NCBI GenBank assembly: GCA_002716405.1
Contig: PBBA01000004.1
Coordinates: 2,482 to 66,481 of the forward strand
Direction of reading: 5' to 3'
DNA length: 64,000 bases
Source of the DNA: Chloroflexota bacterium
GTDB taxonomy: Bacteria; Chloroflexota; Dehalococcoidia; UBA2979
Positions 45,899-58,564 of the stretch are shown here, piece after piece. A program made the position numbers and the translations under genes. How positions within the stretch are numbered: the stretch's first letter is position 1; each line of letters starts with the position of its first letter. The notes below the pieces were generated by a model. That model ran no database searches. It was not told where the DNA came from and worked only from the letters and a program-made list of their open reading frames with translations.

Positions 45899-45972
45899 GG
45901 GCCCGTAGCTTAGTGGTAAAGCAGGCGGCTTTTAACCGCTCGATGAGAGTTCGATTCTCTCCGGGCCCACCA
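45899..45972 (+). tRNA. tRNA-Lys (anticodon UUU), CCA encoded
   Basis: Hand-folded cloverleaf. Acceptor stem GGGCCCG/CGGGCCC. D arm GCTT-AGTGGTA-AAGC. Anticodon stem GGCGG/CCGCT with loop CTTTTAA. T arm GAGAG-TTCGATT-CTCTC. Discriminator A followed by CCA. Confidence 0.9.
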
Positions 45973-47288: not shown

Positions 47289-47867
47289 CTATGATTCTTC
47301 TGGTCGAGCAAAGCCATGAAAACCTTCAGAACCAGGTTCAACGTCAAAGGAACGTAACTGAAAAGCAACCATAGTATAGAATCCTAATAGACTAGACATT
47401 TCTGTGAGCCCACGCTCTCCAAAAAGTCTAATGACCTTACTATACAAGTCATCAGATAATGATTTACCTCCTAACAAGGTCATTGAAAGATCATAGGTTA
47501 CCAGGATATCTTCTCTGTCTGAAACAGGGCGATTCCCTATTTGAACATCGTCTAGTACCGACTGAGGAATCCCATACTCCACAGCACGATCAGCATGTGT
47601 CCACTCAACATTCGATTGCCAATAATACGCAGCAACTGAAATAGCTAATTCTACAATCCCTCGATGAAGCGATGTTTTCTCCCAAAACCATAGCCCAAAT
47701 GTGCGCATTTGGTGACATAATTCAGGGCTACGGAACCATGGATCATAAGGACCACCCCAATAACCAGATTCGGGTACACCTTTATAAAAACGTACTAAGC
47801 TGTCAAATTCTGTTTTAGTGACTTCATCCATAGTATCTGGATCAGGTATCGGACCTAAGCGACTCAT
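47289..47867 (-). CDS. Carboxymuconolactone decarboxylase (AhpD-like) family protein
   Basis: About 190 aa and helical. Collinear with CMD-family proteins (...W..SPEL......G......SL.....ELAI...A..W....EW..H...A...G.........FGERG..E...L.GFY.MVA). Confidence 0.6.
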   Translation of the reverse strand: MSRLGPIPDPDTMDEVTKTEFDSLVRFYKGVPESGYWGGPYDPWFRSPELCHQMRTFGLWFWEKTSLHRGIVELAISVAAYYWQSNVEWTHADRAVEYGIPQSVLDDVQIGNRPVSDREDILVTYDLSMTLLGGKSLSDDLYSKVIRLFGERGLTEMSSLLGFYTMVAFQLRSFDVEPGSEGFHGFARPEES

Positions 47868-47991: not shown

Positions 47992-49074
47992 ATGCCACTC
48001 GAAATTTTTAAAGTATCAGAAGATGATGCAGTTCATGTATCAGATGCATGGCTGTTCGACATTACAAAAAAAATATTTGAGTACGTAGGAGTTCCTTCTG
48101 AAGATGCCTCGCAAGCCGCAGATGTACTTGTCCAGGCTGATCTACGAGGTGTTGATAGTCATGGGGTTTCAAATATGCTTCGTAATTACGTGGCATCTTA
48201 TCAAGAAGGAGCATACAACCCCACTCCTTCTTGGGAAATTGTACGAGAGCGAGCCTCTACTGCAACTATCGAGGCTGATCAAGGACTTGGTATCATTATT
48301 GCACCTAAAGCAATGAAAATAGCTATTCAAAAAGCCAAAAAAACCGGATTCGGTGTTGTCACAATCCGCAACAGTGCTCACATGGGTATGGCTTCTTATC
48401 ATGCCATGCTAGCACTTGAACATGACATGATCGGAGTATCTATGAGTGCAATAGGTTCAGGTGTCTTCCCTACCTTTGGTTCAGAAGGAAGGTTTGGTAC
48501 TAATCCTATTGCTATTGCTGCTCCTGCATTAAATATGCATCCTTTTGTATTTGATATTGCCACTAGTATTGTTGCTGGTAATAAATTAAGACTAGCCAAA
48601 AGATTAGGCACTGTTATGCCGGCAGGCCTTTTTGCAGATGCTGACGGAAATATTGTCGATACTGCAGGACAAGTCCCTGAAATATATAACATGATCCCCA
48701 TTGGCGGAACTCGAGAACATGGATCACATAAAGGGTATGGTTTTGCTCTAATGGTCGAGATACTTTCAACATTGTTATCAGGTGGGATACCATGTACTTT
48801 ACTCGAGACAGGGCGTCCTGCAACTCACCATGTCGCTGCATACGATATCGATGCATTTACTGATGTTCAAGAATTTAAAGAAATGATGGACAAATGGCTT
48901 AAACACCTAGAAGATACACCACCTGCTCCAGGACATGAGAGGGTCCTTACACCCGGCCTAGAAGAAGAAGAGGCCACGATAAAACGTAAAGAAGAAGGCA
49001 TACCACTACACCCAGAGGTAATAGACTGGTTCAAGGTAATCTGTGATGAATTTTCTATTCCGTTTAAGTTATAA
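47992..49074 (+). CDS. Ldh_2-family oxidoreductase (malate/L-lactate/sulfolactate/ureidoglycolate dehydrogenase type 2)
   Basis: ADLRGVDSHGV, R.S.H.G....Y, G.NP.A.A.P and HKGYG.A.MVE are hallmark motifs. Confidence 0.8.
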   Translation: MPLEIFKVSEDDAVHVSDAWLFDITKKIFEYVGVPSEDASQAADVLVQADLRGVDSHGVSNMLRNYVASYQEGAYNPTPSWEIVRERASTATIEADQGLGIIIAPKAMKIAIQKAKKTGFGVVTIRNSAHMGMASYHAMLALEHDMIGVSMSAIGSGVFPTFGSEGRFGTNPIAIAAPALNMHPFVFDIATSIVAGNKLRLAKRLGTVMPAGLFADADGNIVDTAGQVPEIYNMIPIGGTREHGSHKGYGFALMVEILSTLLSGGIPCTLLETGRPATHHVAAYDIDAFTDVQEFKEMMDKWLKHLEDTPPAPGHERVLTPGLEEEEATIKRKEEGIPLHPEVIDWFKVICDEFSIPFKL

Positions 49075-49082
49075 ATCAATAT

Positions 49083-50084
49083 TCATTGAATAACCCAATG
49101 GAGAGGTTCACTTTTACGCCATCGCATCAAGTTTTCAAAAAATCTTTGCGCTGATCTCTCATGATATTTATCAGAGATTGCCGAATTATGTGGAGTTACA
49201 ATTACATTAGGTAGTGTCCAAAGAGGTGAAACTGGTGGCAAAGGTTCTTCTTTAAAAACATCAAGATAGGCACCACCTAGATGTCCCGAAATTAATTTTT
49301 GCGTTAGAGATTCTTCATTAATTACAGGACCACGAGATACATTTATTATTCGGGAACCTTTCGGTAACTTTGACAAACGCTCAGCACTAATCAAACCTTC
49401 AGTTTCATCATTAAGTGGGCAAGAAAGTACTAACCATTCTGCCCTATGTAAAAGATTGTCTAACTCACTATTATCATATATCTCATCGACACCTTCAGGT
49501 ATGTCACTGACATTGCGTCTAATCCCAATCACATGCATCCCAATCGATTTTGCATATCGTGCCACACGTCTCCCTATCTCACCTAAACCAATAATCAACA
49601 ATGTTTGACCACCGATATCAGGAGGTGCGTCATCATAATGAATCGGAGCCCAAACACGCTCGATCTGAGATTCTCTCCAATACTTAAAAGGGCGTCCCAA
49701 CCAAAGTATAGCCGCCAATACATTTAGTGCTATCGGCTCTGCATTGGCACCAGGAGAATTTGTAATTGATATATCTCGATTACTAAGTTGAGGGAAATTT
49801 TTGGGATTTATACCCACAGCAAAAAAATGTAACCATTTTAAGTTTTTTGCACGCGCTAAAGTTTCCAAAAATATATCACGCCTATACCGAATATCATTCG
49901 AAAAAAAAGCAACTTGTACATTACTTAAAATGTCCTCGGGTATTATTTGATCATTATCAACATCAATAATAATGCGAGTTGTTTGTACACCGGGACCTGA
50001 TTCTACTACAGATAATTCCGAATCAAATCTCTCAACAAATTTTTTACTAAGTAGTACACCAAAATCCATTATCTTTTCCTGCAA
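49083..50084 (-). CDS. D-2-hydroxyacid dehydrogenase (NAD-binding), last gene of the selenoprotein operon
   Basis: LLIIGLGEIGRRVARYAKSIGMHVIG Rossmann motif. N.SRGP.I.E..L, YLDVF..EPL and TPH. Confidence 0.8.
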   Translation of the reverse strand: MQEKIMDFGVLLSKKFVERFDSELSVVESGPGVQTTRIIIDVDNDQIIPEDILSNVQVAFFSNDIRYRRDIFLETLARAKNLKWLHFFAVGINPKNFPQLSNRDISITNSPGANAEPIALNVLAAILWLGRPFKYWRESQIERVWAPIHYDDAPPDIGGQTLLIIGLGEIGRRVARYAKSIGMHVIGIRRNVSDIPEGVDEIYDNSELDNLLHRAEWLVLSCPLNDETEGLISAERLSKLPKGSRIINVSRGPVINEESLTQKLISGHLGGAYLDVFKEEPLPPVSPLWTLPNVIVTPHNSAISDKYHERSAQRFFENLMRWRKSEPLHWVIQ

Positions 50085-50096
50085 TATATAACCATA

Positions 50097-51179
50097 TTAA
50101 AATGAAACAATTGGGCGAGTTATAGCTTTCTCAGTAGCCCCCCATGTTGGAACAAAAGTAGCTTTAATACCCACCCCACCTGTAACGATAATAAGTATAT
50201 CTTCAGGTGATATTGCAGAAAATATATGCTCTGATTCTGCAATACCAAGTTCAATACGATTAGCTGTTATTCGAGAAACAGCGTGTGGAGACAACCAAGA
50301 TAAAGGCGTTTTTGATTCATCATACAAAGCTTCTTGAAATCTTTCTCGATCCCAGCCTTGTTCAGAAAGGAATTGTGCAGCTTCAGGGGGAAGAAGAATT
50401 GCAGGTTGACCTCCACCAAAAGATTGCCTTCCCAAATTACCTGCGATGAGCATCGATCGAGACATAGTACGCACCAAATCTTCAGCTGTGGTCTGTGGAA
50501 GTACAACTTCCACACTCCCAACACCTGCTATGACTGTCACCGTACTCTCATCAAGTTTAAATCCTCTTGTAGTATGAAAAGGTGGCCACACACTACCTTC
50601 TTCATTTTCTGCGATTAACCAAGTATATTTACCAGAATGACCATGTGTTGCCATATCACCACTACCGGGAATAGCAAAGGCGATGTTTTGTAAAGCCAAA
50701 CGAATTGCTCGCCCTATAGTTGCATTTGGTTTCGATCCTTGCCCGAGAACATTATGAGAGTTGTTAATACGGAGTTCGTTAATTATTGGACCATTGAGAG
50801 TGATTAGTGGTGCGGCAGCTCCCGTGGTCGTTTGAATGCCGAGAAGATTGAACTCAGGATCTGTCATAGCGTCTAAAGCTGAGGCAATTAATGGAACAAC
50901 TCCAAGATCACAGCCAGCCAAAACTGCACATGCAGCAATATCTCTTAAGTTTGGAATCACAAAGCCTGGGGGAAGTGGCATTTGAGTCGCAGATAATGTT
51001 GGATCCAAACTACCCAGCATTTGGTCAATTTTTTCAGCAGTAGGTGCAATTACAGGTAAACCGTCTGTAAGTCCAGCATTATAAAGTACTATATTAGCAC
51101 TATCTGCACTTGTGAATTCATCTTCAAGGTCAACTAATCGTTCACAGATAGGACGGATATCTAACGGTGGAGTTGTCAT
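50097..51179 (-). CDS. Uncharacterised conserved protein, paralog B of a tandem pair
   Basis: Shares ordered motifs with 51193-52269: TDGLP(V/I), AGC, EFNL.GIQ.TT, LNGPI, G.G...N.TIGRA.RLAL.NI, PG.GD.ATHG, AENE and GG.G......PT.G. No family recognised. Confidence 0.6.
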   Translation of the reverse strand: MTTPPLDIRPICERLVDLEDEFTSADSANIVLYNAGLTDGLPVIAPTAEKIDQMLGSLDPTLSATQMPLPPGFVIPNLRDIAACAVLAGCDLGVVPLIASALDAMTDPEFNLLGIQTTTGAAAPLITLNGPIINELRINNSHNVLGQGSKPNATIGRAIRLALQNIAFAIPGSGDMATHGHSGKYTWLIAENEEGSVWPPFHTTRGFKLDESTVTVIAGVGSVEVVLPQTTAEDLVRTMSRSMLIAGNLGRQSFGGGQPAILLPPEAAQFLSEQGWDRERFQEALYDESKTPLSWLSPHAVSRITANRIELGIAESEHIFSAISPEDILIIVTGGVGIKATFVPTWGATEKAITRPIVSF

Positions 51180-51192
51180 CAGTAACGTCTAG

Positions 51193-52269
51193 TCAGGAGA
51201 AAATAGAACGAACAGGATCACCATTTGCCGTCTCTATTCTACGTGAAACGGTATCAGTACCTCCAAATGTAGGTAACCAACATGAATGTTTACCTGGTCC
51301 CCCAGCTACTATTACATCAATATCATTCCAAGTTTCAGCGACACGAAAACCTTCTGGATGTACTGCACCAGCCGTGCCGCTTCTTCCTCCGTCTAACCAA
51401 TCTTGAGCTTGATCGCTAAATTTGAGTATCGTATTTTCCCAAACAAACTTTTTCACATCGTCTTTAGAATAACCATCGTGAGCTATTTGCTCAGCATGCT
51501 CAGGACCAAAAATTATCATTGGTTCACCTCGACCGCCGATATTATTACTACCAGACTGTCTTAATGATGTGGTCACTGTAGTTAAAAGGCCCTTACCACT
51601 AATGCTTCCATGATCATTAATGTTATGTGGAGCTTCACAAGCTAACACCGTAACAACATTATCATCCTTAGCAAATCCATTTTCCACATGAAGTGGTTCC
51701 CAAGGGTTTGCGGTTTCGTTTTCTGCAGTACAAAAAGAAATTTTTGCTGGTGTACCGTGGGTAGCACGGTCACCATCACCAGGAGTGCCTCCTCCTATGT
51801 TAAGAAGTGCCAAACGTACAGCACGTCCTATTGTCATATTAGATCTAGTGCCTTGTCCAAAACAGTTCGGGCCACTGTTTATCCCTATTTCTTGTGCGAT
51901 TGGACCATTCAAAAGTACAAACACTGCACAAGGGTGTGTAGTAGATTGGATACCATTTAAATTAAATTCATCTTCAGCAACGGCTTGCAATGCAGCAATT
52001 ACAACAGGGAAATATTCTGGACGACACCCTGCCATCACCGCATTCGTGGCAATCCGTTCCAGAGTTGCTTCACCGTTGCGTGGACCCAAAGTTGCGATTA
52101 CATCATCGTTACTCCAATCAACGTACTGACAAATTTCTTCAACACGTGAGCGAGTCGGTGGCACAATGGGTAAACCATCAGTCCATCCTTGTGTTTCAAA
52201 AAAGTCTTGCACAGCTTCTAATGAATCTTCTAGTTCAACAATTGGTGGCAGATCAAGATTAACTGACAT
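51193..52269 (-). CDS. Uncharacterised conserved protein, paralog A of a tandem pair
   Basis: See 50097-51179. A GAGGAA RBS lies 4 nt upstream of the ATG. 13-nt gap to paralog B. Confidence 0.6.
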   Translation of the reverse strand: MSVNLDLPPIVELEDSLEAVQDFFETQGWTDGLPIVPPTRSRVEEICQYVDWSNDDVIATLGPRNGEATLERIATNAVMAGCRPEYFPVVIAALQAVAEDEFNLNGIQSTTHPCAVFVLLNGPIAQEIGINSGPNCFGQGTRSNMTIGRAVRLALLNIGGGTPGDGDRATHGTPAKISFCTAENETANPWEPLHVENGFAKDDNVVTVLACEAPHNINDHGSISGKGLLTTVTTSLRQSGSNNIGGRGEPMIIFGPEHAEQIAHDGYSKDDVKKFVWENTILKFSDQAQDWLDGGRSGTAGAVHPEGFRVAETWNDIDVIVAGGPGKHSCWLPTFGGTDTVSRRIETANGDPVRSIFS

Positions 52270-52333: not shown

Positions 52334-52855
52334 CTAATCAGCACCCATTAAGCTACTTACTGAAGAAGCAGCATCTGGAACTTTTTTCAACACTTCTTCA
52401 GGATCGATACCTCCAAGCGGATGTTCGATAGTGATAATCCGTAAATCAGGAAAACCCATAGCACGAGCCTGGAGGTGTGCTAACTGAATAAAAGCACTAG
52501 TAGCTAAAGTAACTGTTGGAGTTCCTCTTTTTTCAAGTTCTACTGAAGCGTGGATACTCCACGCTGTGCAAGAACCTCAATCAGCACTCCCAACCATTAC
52601 CCAGTCATTTTCAGCAGCCAACTCGTCAAGTATCGCTGGGTCAGCGGGAGTTGAAACTGGCTTGTGACGAGTCATGGAGTGAATTACTCCATATCGCTGA
52701 CCTAATTCTTCGGCAATAGAAGTCATCACAAGTTCTGCATGTTGTTTCCCATTTTCCAGAACACCAACTATCGATTCCCTTATTTCAGGAAAATCTTCTA
52801 GTTCACCTACAGCTGCAGGTTCTGGAGCAGTAGGGTTATGTAATTCAATAACCAT
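52334..52855 (-). CDS. Predicted selenoprotein with UGSC motif (in-frame UGA = Sec at 52577-52579), 173 aa
   Basis: The track ORF 52577-52885 ends at TGA. The same frame continues ...VMVGSAD-U-GSCTAWSIHASVELEKRGTPTVTLATSAFIQLAHLQARAMGFPDLRIITIEHPLGGIDPEEV... for 80 codons to TAG 52334-52336. A hairpin lies immediately 3' of the TGA. Start taken as ATG 52855, which has AAGGAG 6 nt upstream; the track start was TTG 52885. Confidence 0.75.
52536..52576 (-). promoter_or_regulatory. Candidate bacterial SECIS hairpin directly downstream of the UGA
   Basis: Read on the minus strand: lower stem GGUUCU/AGAACU (6 bp, one G-U), a 5x5 internal loop, a perfect 8-bp upper stem AGCGUGGA/UCCACGCU, and apical loop GUA about 20 nt after the UGA. 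Confidence 0.6.
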
Positions 52856-52917: not shown

Positions 52918-53802
52918 TTAAATACCTATTAAGTTTTCTGGATTTTTACATACCATTTGATGTACTTGATCAGCGTCAAAGCCTACTTCTAAAAGGCATT
53001 CAATCCACATACCCATCCCTAGAGGTGGTGACGGATTATTGATCTGTCCCAAGTCAGTTGAGGCGATAATTTGCTCAACACCAACTGCTTTAATTTGTTC
53101 AGCAATAGATCGTACTGACTCACCATCATCATTCCGAAATGCAGCTAACCCACAGTGTTCAATATATACACCAAGACCTGCAAGTTCTTGTTGAACTTCG
53201 ACAGGAATACCAAATGAAGCATGAGTTATGACACTACGTATTCCACGCTCACGAGCTATTCGCAACAACACCAAAGTTTCTTGAGGTGAAATATGACCAC
53301 TGGCTAAAACAGCATCGTGACTAGCTATTTCATCTAAAATATCATGGCATTCAGGTAACAATTCACCCGCATCATTAAGAATTGGAATACCAGCACCCTT
53401 ACTAAAAAAATTACCACCTCGATCGCGATAAGCTGCTGAATCAAAAGTAGGCATCCAAATTACTGTTGCACCAATAGCAAGAGAGACTGCAACTGCGTCA
53501 GGATTCAAGCCTCCAACTCCCCAATCAAGAGCTACGCTACCATAGACATCTATACCATCAAATTCCGTATCAAGTGCCCAAGCAATAGGTTGTGTCGCAT
53601 AATCATGACTCTTCAGGACCAACCCACCCATCCCAGCTTCGATCGCTGAAACAACTAGTTCACGAGAGTCGGTCCGCCTTTCTGTATAGGGATCTGGAGC
53701 AGCATGAACATGCATATCTATCGCACCGCGTATAATATCCTTTACCTCAGGTCTTAATTCATCTAAGTTCGTTGCTTGTAAAGCTGAAAAAGTCATTTGC
53801 AC
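52918..53802 (-). CDS. Amidohydrolase-fold metal-dependent hydrolase (DUF6282-like by recollection), first gene of the selenoprotein operon
   Basis: N-terminal metal motif IDMHVHAAPD, then GMGGLVLKSH. Further His/Asp positions (ASGH, ITHASF, STDLGQ) are spaced as in TIM-barrel amidohydrolases. Confidence 0.6.
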   Translation of the reverse strand: MQMTFSALQATNLDELRPEVKDIIRGAIDMHVHAAPDPYTERRTDSRELVVSAIEAGMGGLVLKSHDYATQPIAWALDTEFDGIDVYGSVALDWGVGGLNPDAVAVSLAIGATVIWMPTFDSAAYRDRGGNFFSKGAGIPILNDAGELLPECHDILDEIASHDAVLASGHISPQETLVLLRIARERGIRSVITHASFGIPVEVQQELAGLGVYIEHCGLAAFRNDDGESVRSIAEQIKAVGVEQIIASTDLGQINNPSPPLGMGMWIECLLEVGFDADQVHQMVCKNPENLIGI

Positions 53803-53897: not shown

Positions 53898-55079
53898 ATG
53901 AGAAGAACATTAAATATTTTTTTTGTTGCCCTGAAATTAGGCTTTATTTCCTTTGGTGGTCCTGTAGCTCATCTCGGATATTTTCGTGAAACATATGTAC
54001 AAAATTTAGAGTGGCTTGACGATACAACATTCGCAAAGTTGGTTGCTTTATGCCAAATATTACCTGGGCCAGCAAGTAGCCAAGTCGGAATGGCAATTGG
54101 AGCCTTGCGTGGAGGTGTATGGGGAGGATTATTTTCATGGGCCGGATTCACATTACCCTCTGCCGTAGTATTAATATTTTTCGGATTTGCTATAGATAGC
54201 TTTAATTTACAAGATAGTGGGTGGATGGTAGGTTTAAAAATCGCAGCAGCAGCAGTAGTCGCCAATGCATTATGGGGAATGTCTCGCTCATTAACACCAG
54301 ATAGAGCACGTATTACAATAGCGATAATTGCTGCGATTTTATTGCTTTACGAAAGAACAATTATTACACAAATACTTATTCTTGTTGCTGGAGCAGTTAT
54401 TGGATGGAGATTAAAACTATCACCAATTAGTAATTTTAAACCTACTCAAAATCTTCATTGGAAACTAAACAAAATAATCGCTATCAGTTCGATAGTGATA
54501 TTCTTTTTATTGTTGATACTTTTGCCGATTTTGAGAGAATTTTATACTTCACAATACACATCTTTATTCGACAGTTTTTATAGAACTGGCTCTCTAGTTT
54601 TTGGAGGAGGTCATGTTGTATTGCCTTTACTTGAATCAGAGGTGGTCTCATCAGGTTGGTTAAGTAAAGATGAATTCATTGCAGGTTATGGAGTTGCTCA
54701 GGCCATTCCAGGACCTTTGTTCACATTTGCTGCATATATAGGAACAGTGGCAAATATTGAACCAAATGGATTAAGCGGTGCACTTATAGCATTATCTGCT
54801 ATTTATTTACCTTCTTTTTTATTATTAGCTGCTGTTTTACCGTTTTGGCAACAATTTACAATGAACCACAAATTAGAAGCTGCCTATGCAGGGATGAATG
54901 CTGCAGTTATCGGACTTTTGGTGGCGGCTTTTTATAATCCAATATGGACACATACAATCACAACTGCTTCATATTTTTCATTATGGTTAATTGCAACAAC
55001 ACTATTAATGGTTTGGAAAACCCCACCATGGATAGTAGTTTTACTTTCTGCCGTAGGTGGATACGTTTTAGAATTATAA
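53898..55079 (+). CDS. chrA: Chromate transporter (CHR family, ChrA-like)
   Basis: Duplicated CHR domain with FGGP.AH.GYF and a second-half FGGGHVVLPLL. Multi-TM protein. Confidence 0.8.
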   Translation: MRRTLNIFFVALKLGFISFGGPVAHLGYFRETYVQNLEWLDDTTFAKLVALCQILPGPASSQVGMAIGALRGGVWGGLFSWAGFTLPSAVVLIFFGFAIDSFNLQDSGWMVGLKIAAAAVVANALWGMSRSLTPDRARITIAIIAAILLLYERTIITQILILVAGAVIGWRLKLSPISNFKPTQNLHWKLNKIIAISSIVIFFLLLILLPILREFYTSQYTSLFDSFYRTGSLVFGGGHVVLPLLESEVVSSGWLSKDEFIAGYGVAQAIPGPLFTFAAYIGTVANIEPNGLSGALIALSAIYLPSFLLLAAVLPFWQQFTMNHKLEAAYAGMNAAVIGLLVAAFYNPIWTHTITTASYFSLWLIATTLLMVWKTPPWIVVLLSAVGGYVLEL

Positions 55080-55086
55080 CAAACTT

Positions 55087-56331
55087 CTACCAAGCTGCTT
55101 CCATTAAATCAATCGCACCTTGGAGTGCTTGATCTGCATCTCTTAAACCTGAATTGAAATTGAACACTTTGATAGTCTCTTTTGCAATTTCAGGAAAGTC
55201 TTCTTTGGGAATATTTAACTCACTAATTCGAGTTGGCATTCCCACTTTTTTATACAAGTCTTCTATGCCATCAGCGATTGCCAATTTAGCGTCTTCAGCA
55301 GACATACCTGTAGCCCATACATCCATAGCTTGAGCAACCCTACGTGCTGTTTCTAAATCAGGAGCAGGGCTTCTTCGTGCGACTGTGGCTGTAAGGACTG
55401 AAGTAGATTCACCTTGCCAGACATGTGGGTAACGAATGTGTAAAGCAGTAGATATGGCATAGTTCCCTGAAAATGCCTGAGTAGCAGGATTTTGACGACC
55501 TCTGACCTGTTCACCATCATCTTGGACTCTATTACCTAAAAGAGCTGCGACGCATAAATCCATACGTGGCCCAATATCGTCAGGGTTTTCATAAATCCCC
55601 AGGTAACCTCTTTTCAGTAAACGAAGAATATGTTCTTTGTCTCCTTCGACTAAGGGATTAGAGGGAACTGCAACAGCAGCAACTGAACCAGCAAACCCTG
55701 TAGTCGCAGTAGATCTAAATAGTTCATAGGGAGAATCCAATATCGACTCGTGATCAAAGATCAAACCGATTGGGCGGGTTTTTGGATCAAAGTACTCCAT
55801 ACGTTGGTCAAGATCGGGATTAGCTAATCCCGAACCTCCGCGATTCATAGCACCTGTCGGCGTCGTTATAACATTAATAATAGGTAGCTTTGGGGCATTT
55901 AGCCGTGGACTATAAGCAGGTTTACCTTCAGGATACTGAGTCATAATTTCAAAAGGATCGCCTTCTTCACAAAGAAAAATATCAATTACACGTGTTGCAA
56001 CAATCACACTGCCACCGCCAACTGATATCAATAAATCTGCACCTGCTTCCCTGGCAGCTTCAGTCGCTGCCATAACTGAATTGTATGTTGAATCTATTTC
56101 GATACCATCAAAATACCCTGCGAAAGAATCTCCGAGTGCTCCCTTAATACGCTCAATATTTCTTGTTTTACTGGAAATTGACTTAGAACAAATTACAAAA
56201 GGTCTTTTCGCACCTGCTCTAATTACTAATTCCTTCAAACGATCTTCTATAGCTTCTTCTCCGGCAAATAAACGCCAATCAAATCCTCGTGCAGCAAAAG
56301 AATTAATATCGCCCATATAAAGACCTTTCAA
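55087..56331 (-). CDS. Iron-containing alcohol dehydrogenase family protein
   Basis: ..VGGGSVI..A and I..I.TT.TGA are Fe-ADH fold motifs. Paralog of the partial gene at 63562-64000. Confidence 0.7.
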   Translation of the reverse strand: MKGLYMGDINSFAARGFDWRLFAGEEAIEDRLKELVIRAGAKRPFVICSKSISSKTRNIERIKGALGDSFAGYFDGIEIDSTYNSVMAATEAAREAGADLLISVGGGSVIVATRVIDIFLCEEGDPFEIMTQYPEGKPAYSPRLNAPKLPIINVITTPTGAMNRGGSGLANPDLDQRMEYFDPKTRPIGLIFDHESILDSPYELFRSTATTGFAGSVAAVAVPSNPLVEGDKEHILRLLKRGYLGIYENPDDIGPRMDLCVAALLGNRVQDDGEQVRGRQNPATQAFSGNYAISTALHIRYPHVWQGESTSVLTATVARRSPAPDLETARRVAQAMDVWATGMSAEDAKLAIADGIEDLYKKVGMPTRISELNIPKEDFPEIAKETIKVFNFNSGLRDADQALQGAIDLMEAAW

Positions 56332-56364
56332 ATATCGCTCTCAATAGATCCATAGTTAGTATTA

Positions 56365-57654
56365 CTATCCTGATCCAATAACACCAGACTGAATCAATTT
56401 CTCCACATGTTCAGGATCGATGCCGTGCTCGATCAATACTTCTGCACTATCTGCACCTAAAACTGGTGCATGCCTTTGTATAATCGTAGGAGTTTCGGAC
56501 ATTGTTGCTACAGGACCAACAACTTTTTGAGGACCAGTAATTGGATGGATAAGATCTTGCATGATTCCCAATGCAACTACTTGAGGATCTTCTGACATTT
56601 CCTCAGGTATATTCACTGGGGCACATGGCACGCCTGCCGCTTCAAGTTCCACAATCCATTCATCAATAGGTTTAGTCAAAATTATTTCAGCAACTCTATT
56701 TCTTAAATCTTGAGCTGCGACTATGCTAGCCGGATCGTTGGCATCAAATTCAGGATCATCGCTATGATCGTCTGTTATCCCAAGCACTTTTCTTGCAGAT
56801 TGGCGTGTCGCAGGTGTCAAAGCTCCTAATACTAGAAAACGGCCATCTGCCGTCTGATAACCACCATAGTAAGATCGAAAATGCGCTCGCATACCACGAC
56901 CTTTAGCACGAGCAGCTAATATTTCTGGGTACGAAGCTTTATTATCACGTAAGAGTGATATTTCTTCCATCATCCCATCACGTGTTACAGCATCGTGCAC
57001 AGGTTCACGCATTACATTGGTGTCTTGAATTGCCAAACCTGCACGTAACAATGAAGTTTCGATTTTTTGACCTTCGCCGGTTTTTTCTCTATGTAAAAGA
57101 GCGGCATTAATAGAAGTAGCAGCAGAAAATCCTGCACAATAATCTGCGATTGAAGAACTAGTCACACCAATAGGCAAGCCGTTTTCATCAACCTTAGCTT
57201 CGCCAACCATTAAACCTGTATATGCTACACCAACAACATCTGTTCCTGCGCGATTCTTTAGCGGTCCCTCCGATCCGAAACCAGTAATTTCGCAGTAAAT
57301 TAACTTTTCATTCAATTTCTTTAACGATTCGTAATCAATACCTAAGCGTTCTGCTACACCAACACGAAAATTAATTAACACCACGTCATAATCAGGAATA
57401 ATTTGATAAATCAAATCTCGACCATCAGGGGATTGTAAATCAACAACTAAACTACGTTTTCCACGATTAAGGGATTGCCAACGTTTCCCTAACCCTGGTA
57501 TTACAGCACCGGCATTACGATGTGGATCGCCTTTTGGGCCTTCTACCTTAACTACATCTGCACCTTGATCTGACAAGATACAACCACAAAAAGGGGCAGC
57601 AACAATTTGAGTAAATTCCAAAACACGAATGCCTCGAAGAGGACCTGCAGCCAT
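56365..57654 (-). CDS. Family III CoA-transferase (CaiB/BaiF type)
   Basis: N-terminus GPL.GIRVLEFTQIVAAPFCG..L.D.GADV.KVE. and the downstream D....N.RK.S. pattern. Confidence 0.85.
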   Translation of the reverse strand: MAAGPLRGIRVLEFTQIVAAPFCGCILSDQGADVVKVEGPKGDPHRNAGAVIPGLGKRWQSLNRGKRSLVVDLQSPDGRDLIYQIIPDYDVVLINFRVGVAERLGIDYESLKKLNEKLIYCEITGFGSEGPLKNRAGTDVVGVAYTGLMVGEAKVDENGLPIGVTSSSIADYCAGFSAATSINAALLHREKTGEGQKIETSLLRAGLAIQDTNVMREPVHDAVTRDGMMEEISLLRDNKASYPEILAARAKGRGMRAHFRSYYGGYQTADGRFLVLGALTPATRQSARKVLGITDDHSDDPEFDANDPASIVAAQDLRNRVAEIILTKPIDEWIVELEAAGVPCAPVNIPEEMSEDPQVVALGIMQDLIHPITGPQKVVGPVATMSETPTIIQRHAPVLGADSAEVLIEHGIDPEHVEKLIQSGVIGSG

Positions 57655-57706
57655 AATTACCTCACTACACCTTAGAGAAACCCAACTTAACTCTAAGATA
57701 TATAAA

Positions 57707-58564
57707 CTAAGTACCTGTAAAGGTTGGGTCTCGTCGTTCCATCAGTGCAGCTTTTGCCTCTTTAGCATCATTAGAAACATTTAATACATGAGCAGCATTT
57801 GATGTCAGTACTGCAGCTGTTTCTAAATTACTATCAACTGCTGCACGCAAATTCCTTTTGTTAATCCATTGTGTAATTGGTGGATGTTTAATCATTCGTG
57901 CACAAAGGTCACGTACTTCCGATTCTAGATCTTCAGCAGGCACTAATTTATTTAATACTCCCCATTGATATGCCCTCTCAGCATCTAAATGGCCCGTGTA
58001 AGCAAATTCAAGTGCACGCCCAAGGCCTGCCAATTTCGTTAAATGATACGCTCCACCATTTTCAATGATCTGACCAACTTGGTGATAGGAAATATACCGC
58101 ATGTGCTCAGAGCCATAACGAATGTCACAAGCAAGTGACAGGTCCATACCAAATCCTGCAGCTACACCATTGATCATTGCAATAGTAGGTTTACGTATAT
58201 AATTGACGTCTTTGATTAGCTTAGTCACTCCATAAAGGAAGCTTTCACGAGTTTGGTCAGGGCTATCAGGATGCTTGACAGATCCGAGGAACGGGCCCCC
58301 TCCATCATATCCTTCAACTCCACGAACATCCACGCCAGCAGAAAAAGCTCGACCTACGCCTGTCAAAACGATAACGCGAACATCAGGATCGTCATCACCT
58401 GCACGCATATATTCGCCAACTTTTGCTAATGTACCAAATCTTTCAGATTCACCAATGCATGCATTCAATCTCTCTGGTCGGTTGAATTTAATCCACAAAA
58501 TTCCATTATCTTCTTTTTCATATAGCAAATAAGGAACTAAATCTAAAGCGTGATCGGACATCAA
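57707..58564 (-). CDS. Enoyl-CoA hydratase/isomerase family protein
   Basis: I.FNRPERLNA, LTGVGRAFSAGVD and INGVAAGFGMDL.L.CD. C-terminal AKEAKAALMERRDP.F. Confidence 0.85.
   Translation of the reverse strand: MMSDHALDLVPYLLYEKEDNGILWIKFNRPERLNACIGESERFGTLAKVGEYMRAGDDDPDVRVIVLTGVGRAFSAGVDVRGVEGYDGGGPFLGSVKHPDSPDQTRESFLYGVTKLIKDVNYIRKPTIAMINGVAAGFGMDLSLACDIRYGSEHMRYISYHQVGQIIENGGAYHLTKLAGLGRALEFAYTGHLDAERAYQWGVLNKLVPAEDLESEVRDLCARMIKHPPITQWINKRNLRAAVDSNLETAAVLTSNAAHVLNVSNDAKEAKAALMERRDPTFTGT

Follow-up and report, generated by a model that had tools for sequence, protein, structure and literature searches.

A pair of adjacent genes in a 64,000-nucleotide (nt) stretch of DNA from a Chloroflexota bacterium of the class Dehalococcoidia (positions 2,482 to 66,481 of contig PBBA01000004.1, hereafter the window) was found to encode members of an undescribed protein family that is tied to the abundant selenoprotein UGSC. 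The two open reading frames (ORFs), designated A (51193..52269, minus strand, 358 amino acids (aa)) and B (50097..51179, minus strand, 360 aa), specify a catalytic-looking 'type 1' member and a 'type 2' paralog, respectively, of an unnamed family of approximately 350-aa proteins, and as members of this family are almost always encoded beside, or fused to, UGSC, A and B are most likely the catalytic partners so far missing for this selenoprotein. The link was established in a sample of 80 loci on GTDB contigs, drawn from one genome per species and retrieved with an A-type profile, in which UGSC was sought by comparing six-frame translations with the UGSC protein of the window and with a family hidden Markov model (HMM). 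A UGSC homolog lies beside the family gene on the same strand in 76 of the 80 loci, upstream in about 71 and downstream in five, and since two of the four loci without UGSC have the family gene at a contig edge, the count becomes 76 of 78 evaluable loci. The approximately 350-aa family and UGSC form a near-obligate gene pair across phyla, and the check proposed in the original prediction made for this DNA, namely co-occurrence with selenocysteine (Sec) or Cys forms of UGSC, was borne out by these counts as well as by the gene fusions described below. At the U position an in-frame stop is present in 77 of the 82 UGSC genes that were aligned, and a Cys in four (Natrialba, a Sphingomonas metagenome-assembled genome (MAG), a Binatia MAG and an archaeal MAG), while a motif scan of all UGSC matches identified the in-frame stop as TGA in 81 of 82 cases. 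In the reverse test, which started from a UGSC query, two Cys-form genes (P0398 and P0400) proved to have an A-type gene and behind it a B-type gene downstream, and one of these two loci carries a second module, composed of a Sec-form UGSC and a family gene, on the other strand.

Further evidence for the pairing is provided by proteins in which the partners are joined, as established by Pfam scans of the best 150 representatives from an exhaustive HMM search. A full-length Cys-form UGSC is fused N-terminally to the family domain in P0246 and in P0256, the latter corresponding to WP_431428495.1, whose RefSeq name is only 'UGSC family (seleno)protein'. The ORFs of P0243 and P0244 start just past the Sec codon and run from the C-terminal half of UGSC into the family domain, these being Sec-form fusions shortened by gene callers, and the reverse order is seen in P0248 and P0250, where the family domain is followed by a UGSC part that ends exactly at the Sec position. 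In the cultured Bacillota strain Robertmurraya sp. 2P01SA (NZ_CP154845.1; locus L080, 5400-7017) the UGSC and A parts are read in one frame through the UGA. A third component was recognised in P0282, found on two contigs, in which an A-type domain is fused to a complete low-Mr thioredoxin-reductase-like (TrxR-like) module (Pyr_redox_2) with a CxxC motif, and where a Sec-form UGSC gene overlaps the start codon of the fusion gene. Separate TrxR-like genes were detected by tblastn in 12 loci, 11 of which have the gene directly upstream of UGSC while L006 has it downstream, their products retain the CxxC motif, and the gene order in Alphaproteobacteria and Blastococcus is TrxR-UGSC-A-B.

The UGSC gene of the window (52334..52855, minus strand) lies 64 nt upstream of A on the same strand and encodes a 173-aa protein that is matched over positions 2-172 by an HMM and in its N-terminal half by Pfam PF24696 and NCBIfam NF041046. 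Read-through translation places an in-frame UGA at 52577-52579, equivalent to Sec93 in the motif D-U-G-S-C-T (context ..VGSAD-U-GSC-TAW..). Directly 3' of this UGA is a candidate bacterial selenocysteine insertion sequence (SECIS) stem-loop (52532..52580, minus strand) with a minimum free energy of -20.9 kcal/mol, a z-score of -3.4 against shuffled sequences and an inner hairpin GCGUGGA-GUA-UCCACGC, and when 79 distinct UGSC genes from other genomes were folded a hairpin of the form CGUGGAGU(A/G)UCCACG was present 14 nt past the UGA in most of the genes listed; judged by sequence and folding, the element has the look of a bacterial SECIS. No tRNA-Sec gene is present within the window. A survey of Global Ocean Sampling (GOS) data counted 255 Sec forms and 21 Cys forms of UGSC (PMC2398784), and reviews to 2026 still give the protein no function (PMC13188914); our literature searches on DUF6282 (the family of a neighbouring gene), on selenoproteins together with SAR202 and on the neighbourhoods of uncharacterised selenoproteins found nothing relevant. 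The same GOS paper proposed a thioredoxin-like fold for UGSC (PMC2398784), a suggestion that is not supported by the predicted structure of a Cys homolog (P0391; AlphaFold2, predicted local distance difference test (pLDDT) score 87). This model comprises five beta-alpha units, its best Foldseek matches are flavodoxin-like proteins (E about 2e-4, template modelling (TM) score about 0.5), the wider set of matches includes flavodoxin-like and other Rossmann-like alpha/beta proteins at TM about 0.3-0.5, and no thioredoxin was present among the top 50; UGSC is thus predicted to be flavodoxin-like. In the model the (U/C)GSC motif lies between strand 3 and the N-terminus of helix 3, and a helix N-terminus is the classic site for a redox-active dithiol or selenenylsulfide.

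The original prediction, made from the sequence of the window alone, had described A and B as clearly homologous proteins that share an ordered set of motifs and had interpreted them as an obligate heterodimer of an unrecognised family; the observation was confirmed, and the interpretation was supported in part. BLASTP aligned A and B over 354 columns with 34% identity and 53% positives (E 5e-58), far past chance, and every one of the motifs that had been noted occurs in both proteins in the same order, namely TDGLP(I/V)xxPT, AGC, EFNLxGIQxTT, LNGPI, GQGxxxNxTIGRAxRLALxNI, PGxGDxATHG, AENE and GGxGxxxxxxPTxG. The dissimilarity noted for the middle part was likewise recovered, the two proteins being least alike around residues 200-300. 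A and B are conserved, genuine genes: they match a profile of 97 family sequences at E 1e-157 and 3e-137, respectively, B occurs in 100% identical form on 30 public contigs and is named in one source as a hypothetical protein of a marine Chloroflexi MAG (P0121), and A has relatives at 95% (P0001) and 79% identity. Both proteins also carry the ordered motifs that define the family, TDGLP...AGC...TT(H/G/N)...NxxIGR...D-x-(A/S)-T...K...AEN...PE(H)A...GGxG, which in A take the form TDGLP, AGC (C82), QSTTH (H112), NxTIGR, PGDGDxAT, PAK, CxAEN, CEAPHNIND, GPEHA and GGPGKHSCWLPTFG.

The relationship between the two types was determined from an alignment of 110 family members from the loci, of which 89 are A-like and 16 B-like. 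The A-like proteins have a set of residues in common (C82 in 87 of 89, H112 in 69, C180 in 82, H194 in 76, E212 in 75, H215 in 74, N216 in 80, H258 in 84, H328 in 84 and S329 in 80), whereas the B-like proteins have G112, E216 and K328 in 16/16, S or V at 212, V, A or I at 215, and L or M at 258; an invariant polar core of D31, T110, T111, N144, R149, D167, T170, K176, E183 and E257 (A numbering) is kept in both. Four of the five conserved A-type His residues (H112, H194, H215, H258 and H328) are accordingly gone in B, namely H112, H215, H258 and H328. In B of the window H112 is replaced by G, the E212/H215/N216/D219 motif by GVGSVEVVL and H328 by K, and H258 is lost. The B type is recognised by TTTG in place of TTH, GxxG(S/T)xEV in place of xEGPHNxND, GxK(A/M)T in place of GKHS and a position directly after an A-type gene, and B of the window conforms to these marks with IQTTTGA, AGVGSVEVVL and GGVGIKAT. 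Two residues had been put forward as invariant candidates for catalysis or metal binding, and they fared differently. The Cys of AGC is conserved throughout the family, in 87/89 A-like and 12/16 B-like proteins, but the position of the ATHG His is variable, being occupied by Q in 39, H in 16, F in 16 and M in six of the 89 A-like proteins, and a role for it as a catalytic residue or metal ligand is not supported.

Neighbour-joining set the 16 B-like proteins apart in an exclusive clade, with members in Chloroflexota, Acidimicrobiia, Alphaproteobacteria and Actinomycetes (B of the window, its SAR202 orthologs, the Acidimicrobiia locus L006, ten second genes of Alphaproteobacteria and Blastococcus, and two orphans), so B is an old paralog and not a recent duplicate, as had been predicted. 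Fourteen of the 16 B-like genes directly follow an A-type gene that itself follows UGSC, and the junctions are tight or overlapping: in the window the two ORFs are arranged head to tail with 13 nt between the stop of A and the start of B, and in L005 they overlap by 4 nt. This gene order, the nature of the junctions and the loss of the four A-type His residues fit a catalytic A and a degenerate B that may associate with each other. The genetic pattern therefore agrees in part with the obligate heterodimer of the prediction. An A-type gene without B is found in about 65 of the 80 loci; because most lineages have A only, a heterodimer would not extend to the family as a whole and would, on these genetic grounds, be a lineage-specific elaboration. 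The two orphan B-like genes (L007 7001-8029 and L008 3062-4114) have no A-type gene within 6-7 kb, and that of L007 adjoins Redoxin/AhpC-type genes.

That A and B lie outside any described family, as had been proposed, was upheld by every search undertaken. Pfam-A and NCBIfam scans of both proteins gave no match, a Pfam scan of the 97 aligned relatives at E <= 1 matched no family consistently, and single-sequence as well as profile searches of PDB sequences were empty. For A, an AlphaFold2 model derived from the alignment of 97 sequences reached high predicted quality (mean pLDDT 90.9, predicted TM score 0.91), and its comparison by Foldseek with the PDB gave nothing significant, the best match being class I fumarate hydratase at E 0.08 and TM 0.25, while the viral BFVD library gave no match at all. 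Individual candidates were rejected as follows. An Fe-S hydro-lyase of the class I fumarate hydratase/aconitase type would be expected to have the three-Cys [4Fe-4S] set, and the only well-conserved Cys residues are C82 and C180; homology to MmgE/PrpD, for which an alignment was prepared from neighbouring genes, received an hhalign probability of 2.3%, with the Foldseek epimerase match at E 0.18 and TM 0.14; Rid/YjgF, PurM-like, FtsZ and encapsulin matches all had E above 0.1 and were taken as noise; and an Ntn-hydrolase/GGT relationship, suggested by a 'Q-TTH' look-alike, found no counterpart among the 50 Foldseek PDB matches listed or in Pfam, so that this resemblance is regarded as coincidence.

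The family is nevertheless very large, and it extends over many bacterial phyla and into some archaea. A word-indexed search yielded at least 8,000 homolog candidates, all named 'hypothetical' among the matches listed, and when the representatives of 1.84 billion clusters (at 50% identity) were searched exhaustively by HMM, the family was found to comprise 7,577 of these clusters at E <= 1e-3, or 2,380 if the limit was set at E <= 1e-30. A different name was met only for P0148 (MBM3139693.1); GenBank lists this partial B-type ortholog, which comes from a Chloroflexi MAG, as 'thioredoxin, partial', and this looks like an annotation artefact. Among species-representative genomes, carriers are found in Chloroflexota/Dehalococcoidia, Methylomirabilota/Rokubacteria, Binatia, Burkholderiales and other Betaproteobacteria, Gammaproteobacteria, Alphaproteobacteria (Reyranella, Vineibacter terrae, Acetobacteraceae and Sphingomonas), Acidimicrobiia, Actinomycetes (Blastococcus), Bacillota (Robertmurraya) and the haloarchaeon Natrialba asiatica, and some genomes hold two or three complete modules (three in L041). 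Divergent subtypes were also encountered (L043 9624-11039 and 11504-12844, L049 9814-11160, L071 160-1506 and L085 4089-5657), with motifs such as 'AGSTPG ... SGDPGRNxGYVQN' or 'VQCTSGQ ... AMSWQDLV', each being preceded by a UGSC-like ORF whose match is weak or covers just a part of it. Proteins of about 710 aa with two tandem divergent copies of the domain (P0241 at L095 5001-7154, P0253, P0267, P0329, P0350 and P0378) were considered as possible A-B fusions, and this was rejected as they constitute a divergent subfamily in which neither half is of the A or B type. They loosely back a two-domain architecture, and they may be a UGSC-independent branch of the family, P0241 following an SBP_bac_5 solute-binding gene with no UGSC gene beside it.

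The surroundings of the module give an indication of the pathway that it serves. Over about 85 loci the recurrent neighbouring families are TTT/Bug solute-binding proteins (20 loci), CoA-transferase III (11), SDR (10), crotonase (9), TrxR-like (7 by clustering, 12 by tblastn), luciferase-like monooxygenases (7), amidase (6), MmgE/PrpD (6) and DUF6282 (6-7). The Robertmurraya operon is composed of genes for a thiolase, a sigma-54 PrpR-type activator, a crotonase, MmgE/PrpD, the UGSC-A fusion, TRAP DctM, DUF6282, an NAD-dependent dehydrogenase, Ldh_2, a thioesterase and a MaoC dehydratase, and despite the phylogenetic distance it has DUF6282, Ldh_2 and crotonase in common with the SAR202 window. 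Because DUF6282, Ldh_2, 2-hydroxyacid dehydrogenases, MmgE/PrpD, CoA-transferase III, crotonase and TRAP, TTT or MFS transporters are its neighbours, the module is assigned to a catabolic route by which small carboxylic acids are taken up and subsequently processed as CoA esters.

Based on these findings we favour, with about even confidence, a model of a multi-component enzyme with UGSC at its centre and A and B among its subunits, which would act as a selenol-dependent reductase in organic-acid catabolism. The subunit roles that we infer would be as follows. A would be the substrate-binding catalytic subunit, equipped with C82, C180 and the His-rich family-specific set of residues, a role suggested for the Cys and His residues by their conservation. 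B would be an ancient degenerate paralog that, where present, pairs with A as a pseudo-symmetric heterodimer, and elsewhere A probably homodimerises. The Sec-x-x-Cys of UGSC would either attack the A-bound substrate directly or reduce a C82/C180 disulfide or adduct on A, in both cases ending as a selenenylsulfide, whose Se-S bond would be re-reduced by NAD(P)H through the TrxR-like flavoprotein. Electrons would thereby pass from NAD(P)H to the TrxR-like flavoprotein, to UGSC and on to the substrate on A(/B), the flavoprotein being encoded within the module in some lineages and presumably elsewhere in the genome in the SAR202-type organism. This path is proposed because of the links to TrxR, the U-x-x-C motif and an extreme bias towards Sec, and the net reaction is most likely a selenol-dependent reduction of an organic acid because the operons place the module in carboxylic-acid catabolism. 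The broader view that UGSC and A, with or without B and the TrxR-like protein, make up an undescribed selenoenzyme class performing selenol-dependent reductive chemistry on organic acids in mostly aerobic heterotrophs (SAR202, Rokubacteria, Burkholderiales, Alphaproteobacteria and some haloarchaea) is put forward more tentatively.

Several findings weigh against this model. Within 6-7 kb no UGSC was detected with a UGSC HMM at E <= 10 in the A-like loci L079 and L090 or around the orphan B-like genes of L007 and L008, and the double-domain subfamily represented by P0241 likewise has no adjacent UGSC. There is no TrxR-like gene within the window, and one is adjacent in about 15% of the loci only; the B paralog is present in only about 16% of loci; and the neighbours other than UGSC differ so widely by lineage that no single substrate or reaction can be read from them.

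The scarcity of dedicated TrxR-like genes, which are missing from most loci, would also suit a non-redox isomerase, racemase, lyase or hydratase, in which Sec93, together with Cys96 or C82, serves as nucleophile or acid/base and the TrxR-like protein only keeps the selenol reduced. Two-thiol racemases and maleate isomerase provide a model for such a role of Sec93, the catabolic operons are rich in isomerase and dehydratase families (MmgE/PrpD, crotonase and MaoC), and the weak top Foldseek matches of A are a hydratase and an epimerase. We nonetheless consider this explanation unlikely, as those matches fall short of significance (E at least 0.08, TM about 0.25, with MmgE/PrpD at 2.3% by hhalign), as U-x-x-C at a helix N-terminus is a classic dithiol/selenenylsulfide redox motif, and as the A-TrxR fusion with UGSC translationally coupled upstream, along with the TrxR-UGSC-A-B arrangement in 11 loci, points to stoichiometric electron input and not to occasional repair.

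Slightly less probable again is that A and B are independent enzymes that form no mutual complex, each working with UGSC on a different substrate or step. Such an arrangement would be compatible with A occurring alone in most lineages, with the orphan B-like genes of L007 and L008, and with B being full length and under purifying selection. It is difficult to reconcile, however, with the finding that 14 of the 16 B-like genes come immediately behind an A-like gene, itself preceded by a single UGSC gene, with the tight or overlapping junctions, with the absence from B of residues that are near-invariant in stand-alone A-types, and with the occurrence of proteins containing two tandem copies of the domain.

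The architecture of the module also resembles relays of TrxR, thioredoxin and target, and it could on that account be an electrophile- or peroxide-detoxification relay running from the TrxR-like protein through UGSC to A, with A as a terminal peroxidase or reductase analogous to AhpC in the AhpF/AhpC system. Selenoproteins are common in antioxidant defence (PMC13188914), and the orphan B-like gene of L007 is located beside Redoxin/AhpC-type genes. This is judged improbable, given that the catabolic operons in which the module is situated are substrate-specific and include transporters as well as a sigma-54 PrpR-type regulator, and given that the presence of multiple diverged modules per genome (three in L041) fits substrate diversification better than a housekeeping antioxidant function. 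Least probable of all, and only faintly so, is that A and B are accessory or maturation factors handling a cofactor or selenium for UGSC as the actual enzyme, which would account for the strict co-occurrence but sits poorly with the retention of the partners by Cys-form UGSC, with the size of A (twice that of UGSC) and its bigger set of invariant polar residues, and with the nature of the 173-aa UGSC itself, a generic flavodoxin-like fold with few invariant residues beyond DUGSC.

The logic of the proposed selenol-dependent reductase appears nearest to that of the glycine and proline reductases or of a TrxR-thioredoxin-target relay, by analogy, although the module would seem to belong to neither family. 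The glycine/sarcosine/betaine reductases and D-proline reductase (GrdA/B/E and PrdA/B) likewise combine a small selenoprotein with larger non-seleno subunits and act on a small acid substrate, and their Sec form outnumbers the Cys form. In these enzymes electrons are supplied by TrxR-type flavoproteins, with recycling by thioredoxin and thioredoxin reductase, and the Sec of PrdB/GrdB is the attacking nucleophile at the active site. PrdB moreover carries a U-x-x-C motif (PMC2398784, Table 2). The differences are considerable: the sequences are unrelated, with no match to GRDB (PF07355), Gly_reductase (PF09338) or GRDA in scans of A and B or, at E <= 1, of the 97 relatives and 15 UGSC homologs; PrdA and GrdE are pyruvoyl proproteins, whereas A and B have an invariant T110-T111 and, as far as can be read from their sequences, nothing that points to processing; and the hosts of the module are largely aerobic heterotrophs, not Stickland fermenters. 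With the TrxR-dependent relays (AhpF/AhpC, thioredoxin-dependent MsrA/B and ArsC) the module shares a flavoprotein with CxxC, a terminal protein with conserved Cys residues, a carrier whose (U/C)-G-S-C resembles the C-G-P-C of thioredoxin and similarly lies at a helix N-terminus, and fusions of the flavoprotein to a partner, as in AhpF; unlike in those relays, the UGSC carrier is predicted to be flavodoxin-like and not of thioredoxin fold, and A matches no solved structure. Class I fumarate hydratase and MmgE/PrpD act on small di- or tricarboxylates, in line with the operon context, and MmgE/PrpD genes are neighbours in six loci, but at E 0.08-0.3 and TM about 0.14-0.27 homology is unsupported.

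A precedent for the pairing itself may exist in the work of Zhang and Gladyshev (2008, PLoS Genet), who described a domain 'Unknown_1' fused to UGSC, with at least one conserved Cys (PMC2398784), and reported it as of limited occurrence and also as a separate protein in some aquatic organisms (PMC2398784). Unknown_1 is probably the domain of the present family, which includes UGSC fusions of that kind and in which C82 is conserved; in contrast to the limited occurrence described then, the family as defined here comprises 7,577 clusters at 50% identity and has a near-universal link to UGSC. The orphan selenoprotein UGSC consequently becomes a defined and testable multi-component system, with an approximately 350-aa partner, fusions to UGSC and to a TrxR-like protein, and a degenerate paralog B. 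Being large yet absent from Pfam and NCBIfam, and without a relative of solved structure, the family merits its own family definition. Cultured organisms offer handles for such work, namely Natrialba asiatica and Actinophytocola with Cys forms, Robertmurraya sp. with a Sec fusion in a sigma-54-regulated operon, and Vineibacter terrae with UGSC-A-B.

In the window the module is part of a cluster of five minus-strand genes separated by short gaps, in the order DUF6282, UGSC, A, B and 2-hydroxyacid dehydrogenase. The first gene (52918..53802, minus strand) encodes a 294-aa DUF6282 protein (Pfam PF19799, E 1.9e-57), whose HxH motif suggests an amidohydrolase-like protein, and the last (49083..50084, minus strand) encodes a D-isomer-specific 2-hydroxyacid dehydrogenase (Pfam PF02826 and PF00389) with a probable ATG at 50069, 27 nt past the stop of B. 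A promoter and terminator scan, which we regard as uninformative, found no terminator-like site on the minus strand across the five genes. Beyond the 2-hydroxyacid dehydrogenase gene, and convergent with the cluster, lies a gene for a dehydrogenase of the Ldh_2 family (malate/L-lactate/sulfolactate-type; 47992..49074, plus strand; Pfam PF02615, E 1.4e-99), which probably belongs to the same pathway, followed by an MFS transporter gene. Farther upstream of the cluster are genes for CoA-transferase III, crotonase and two acyl-CoA dehydrogenases. The gene order of the window was met again on independent marine contigs, from TARA and other sources, as well as in L011, a Dehalococcoidia MAG from station ALOHA; DUF6282 recurs beside the module in L005, L011, L040, L043, L062, L071 and L080, and the 2-hydroxyacid dehydrogenase gene occupies the same position in L005 and L011.

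The segment of the window at 53898-58564 contains a chromate-transporter-family gene on the plus strand and genes for an iron-containing alcohol dehydrogenase, a CoA-transferase III and an enoyl-CoA hydratase on the minus strand, and on matching TARA contigs acyl-CoA dehydrogenase genes are present past this block. A single tRNA gene, tRNA-Lys(UUU), is located at 45899-45972 on the plus strand. Between the MFS transporter and Ldh_2 genes a 192-aa ORF (47289-47867, minus strand), which gave no Pfam or NCBIfam match, is likewise conserved in this place in L001-L004, the TARA contigs.

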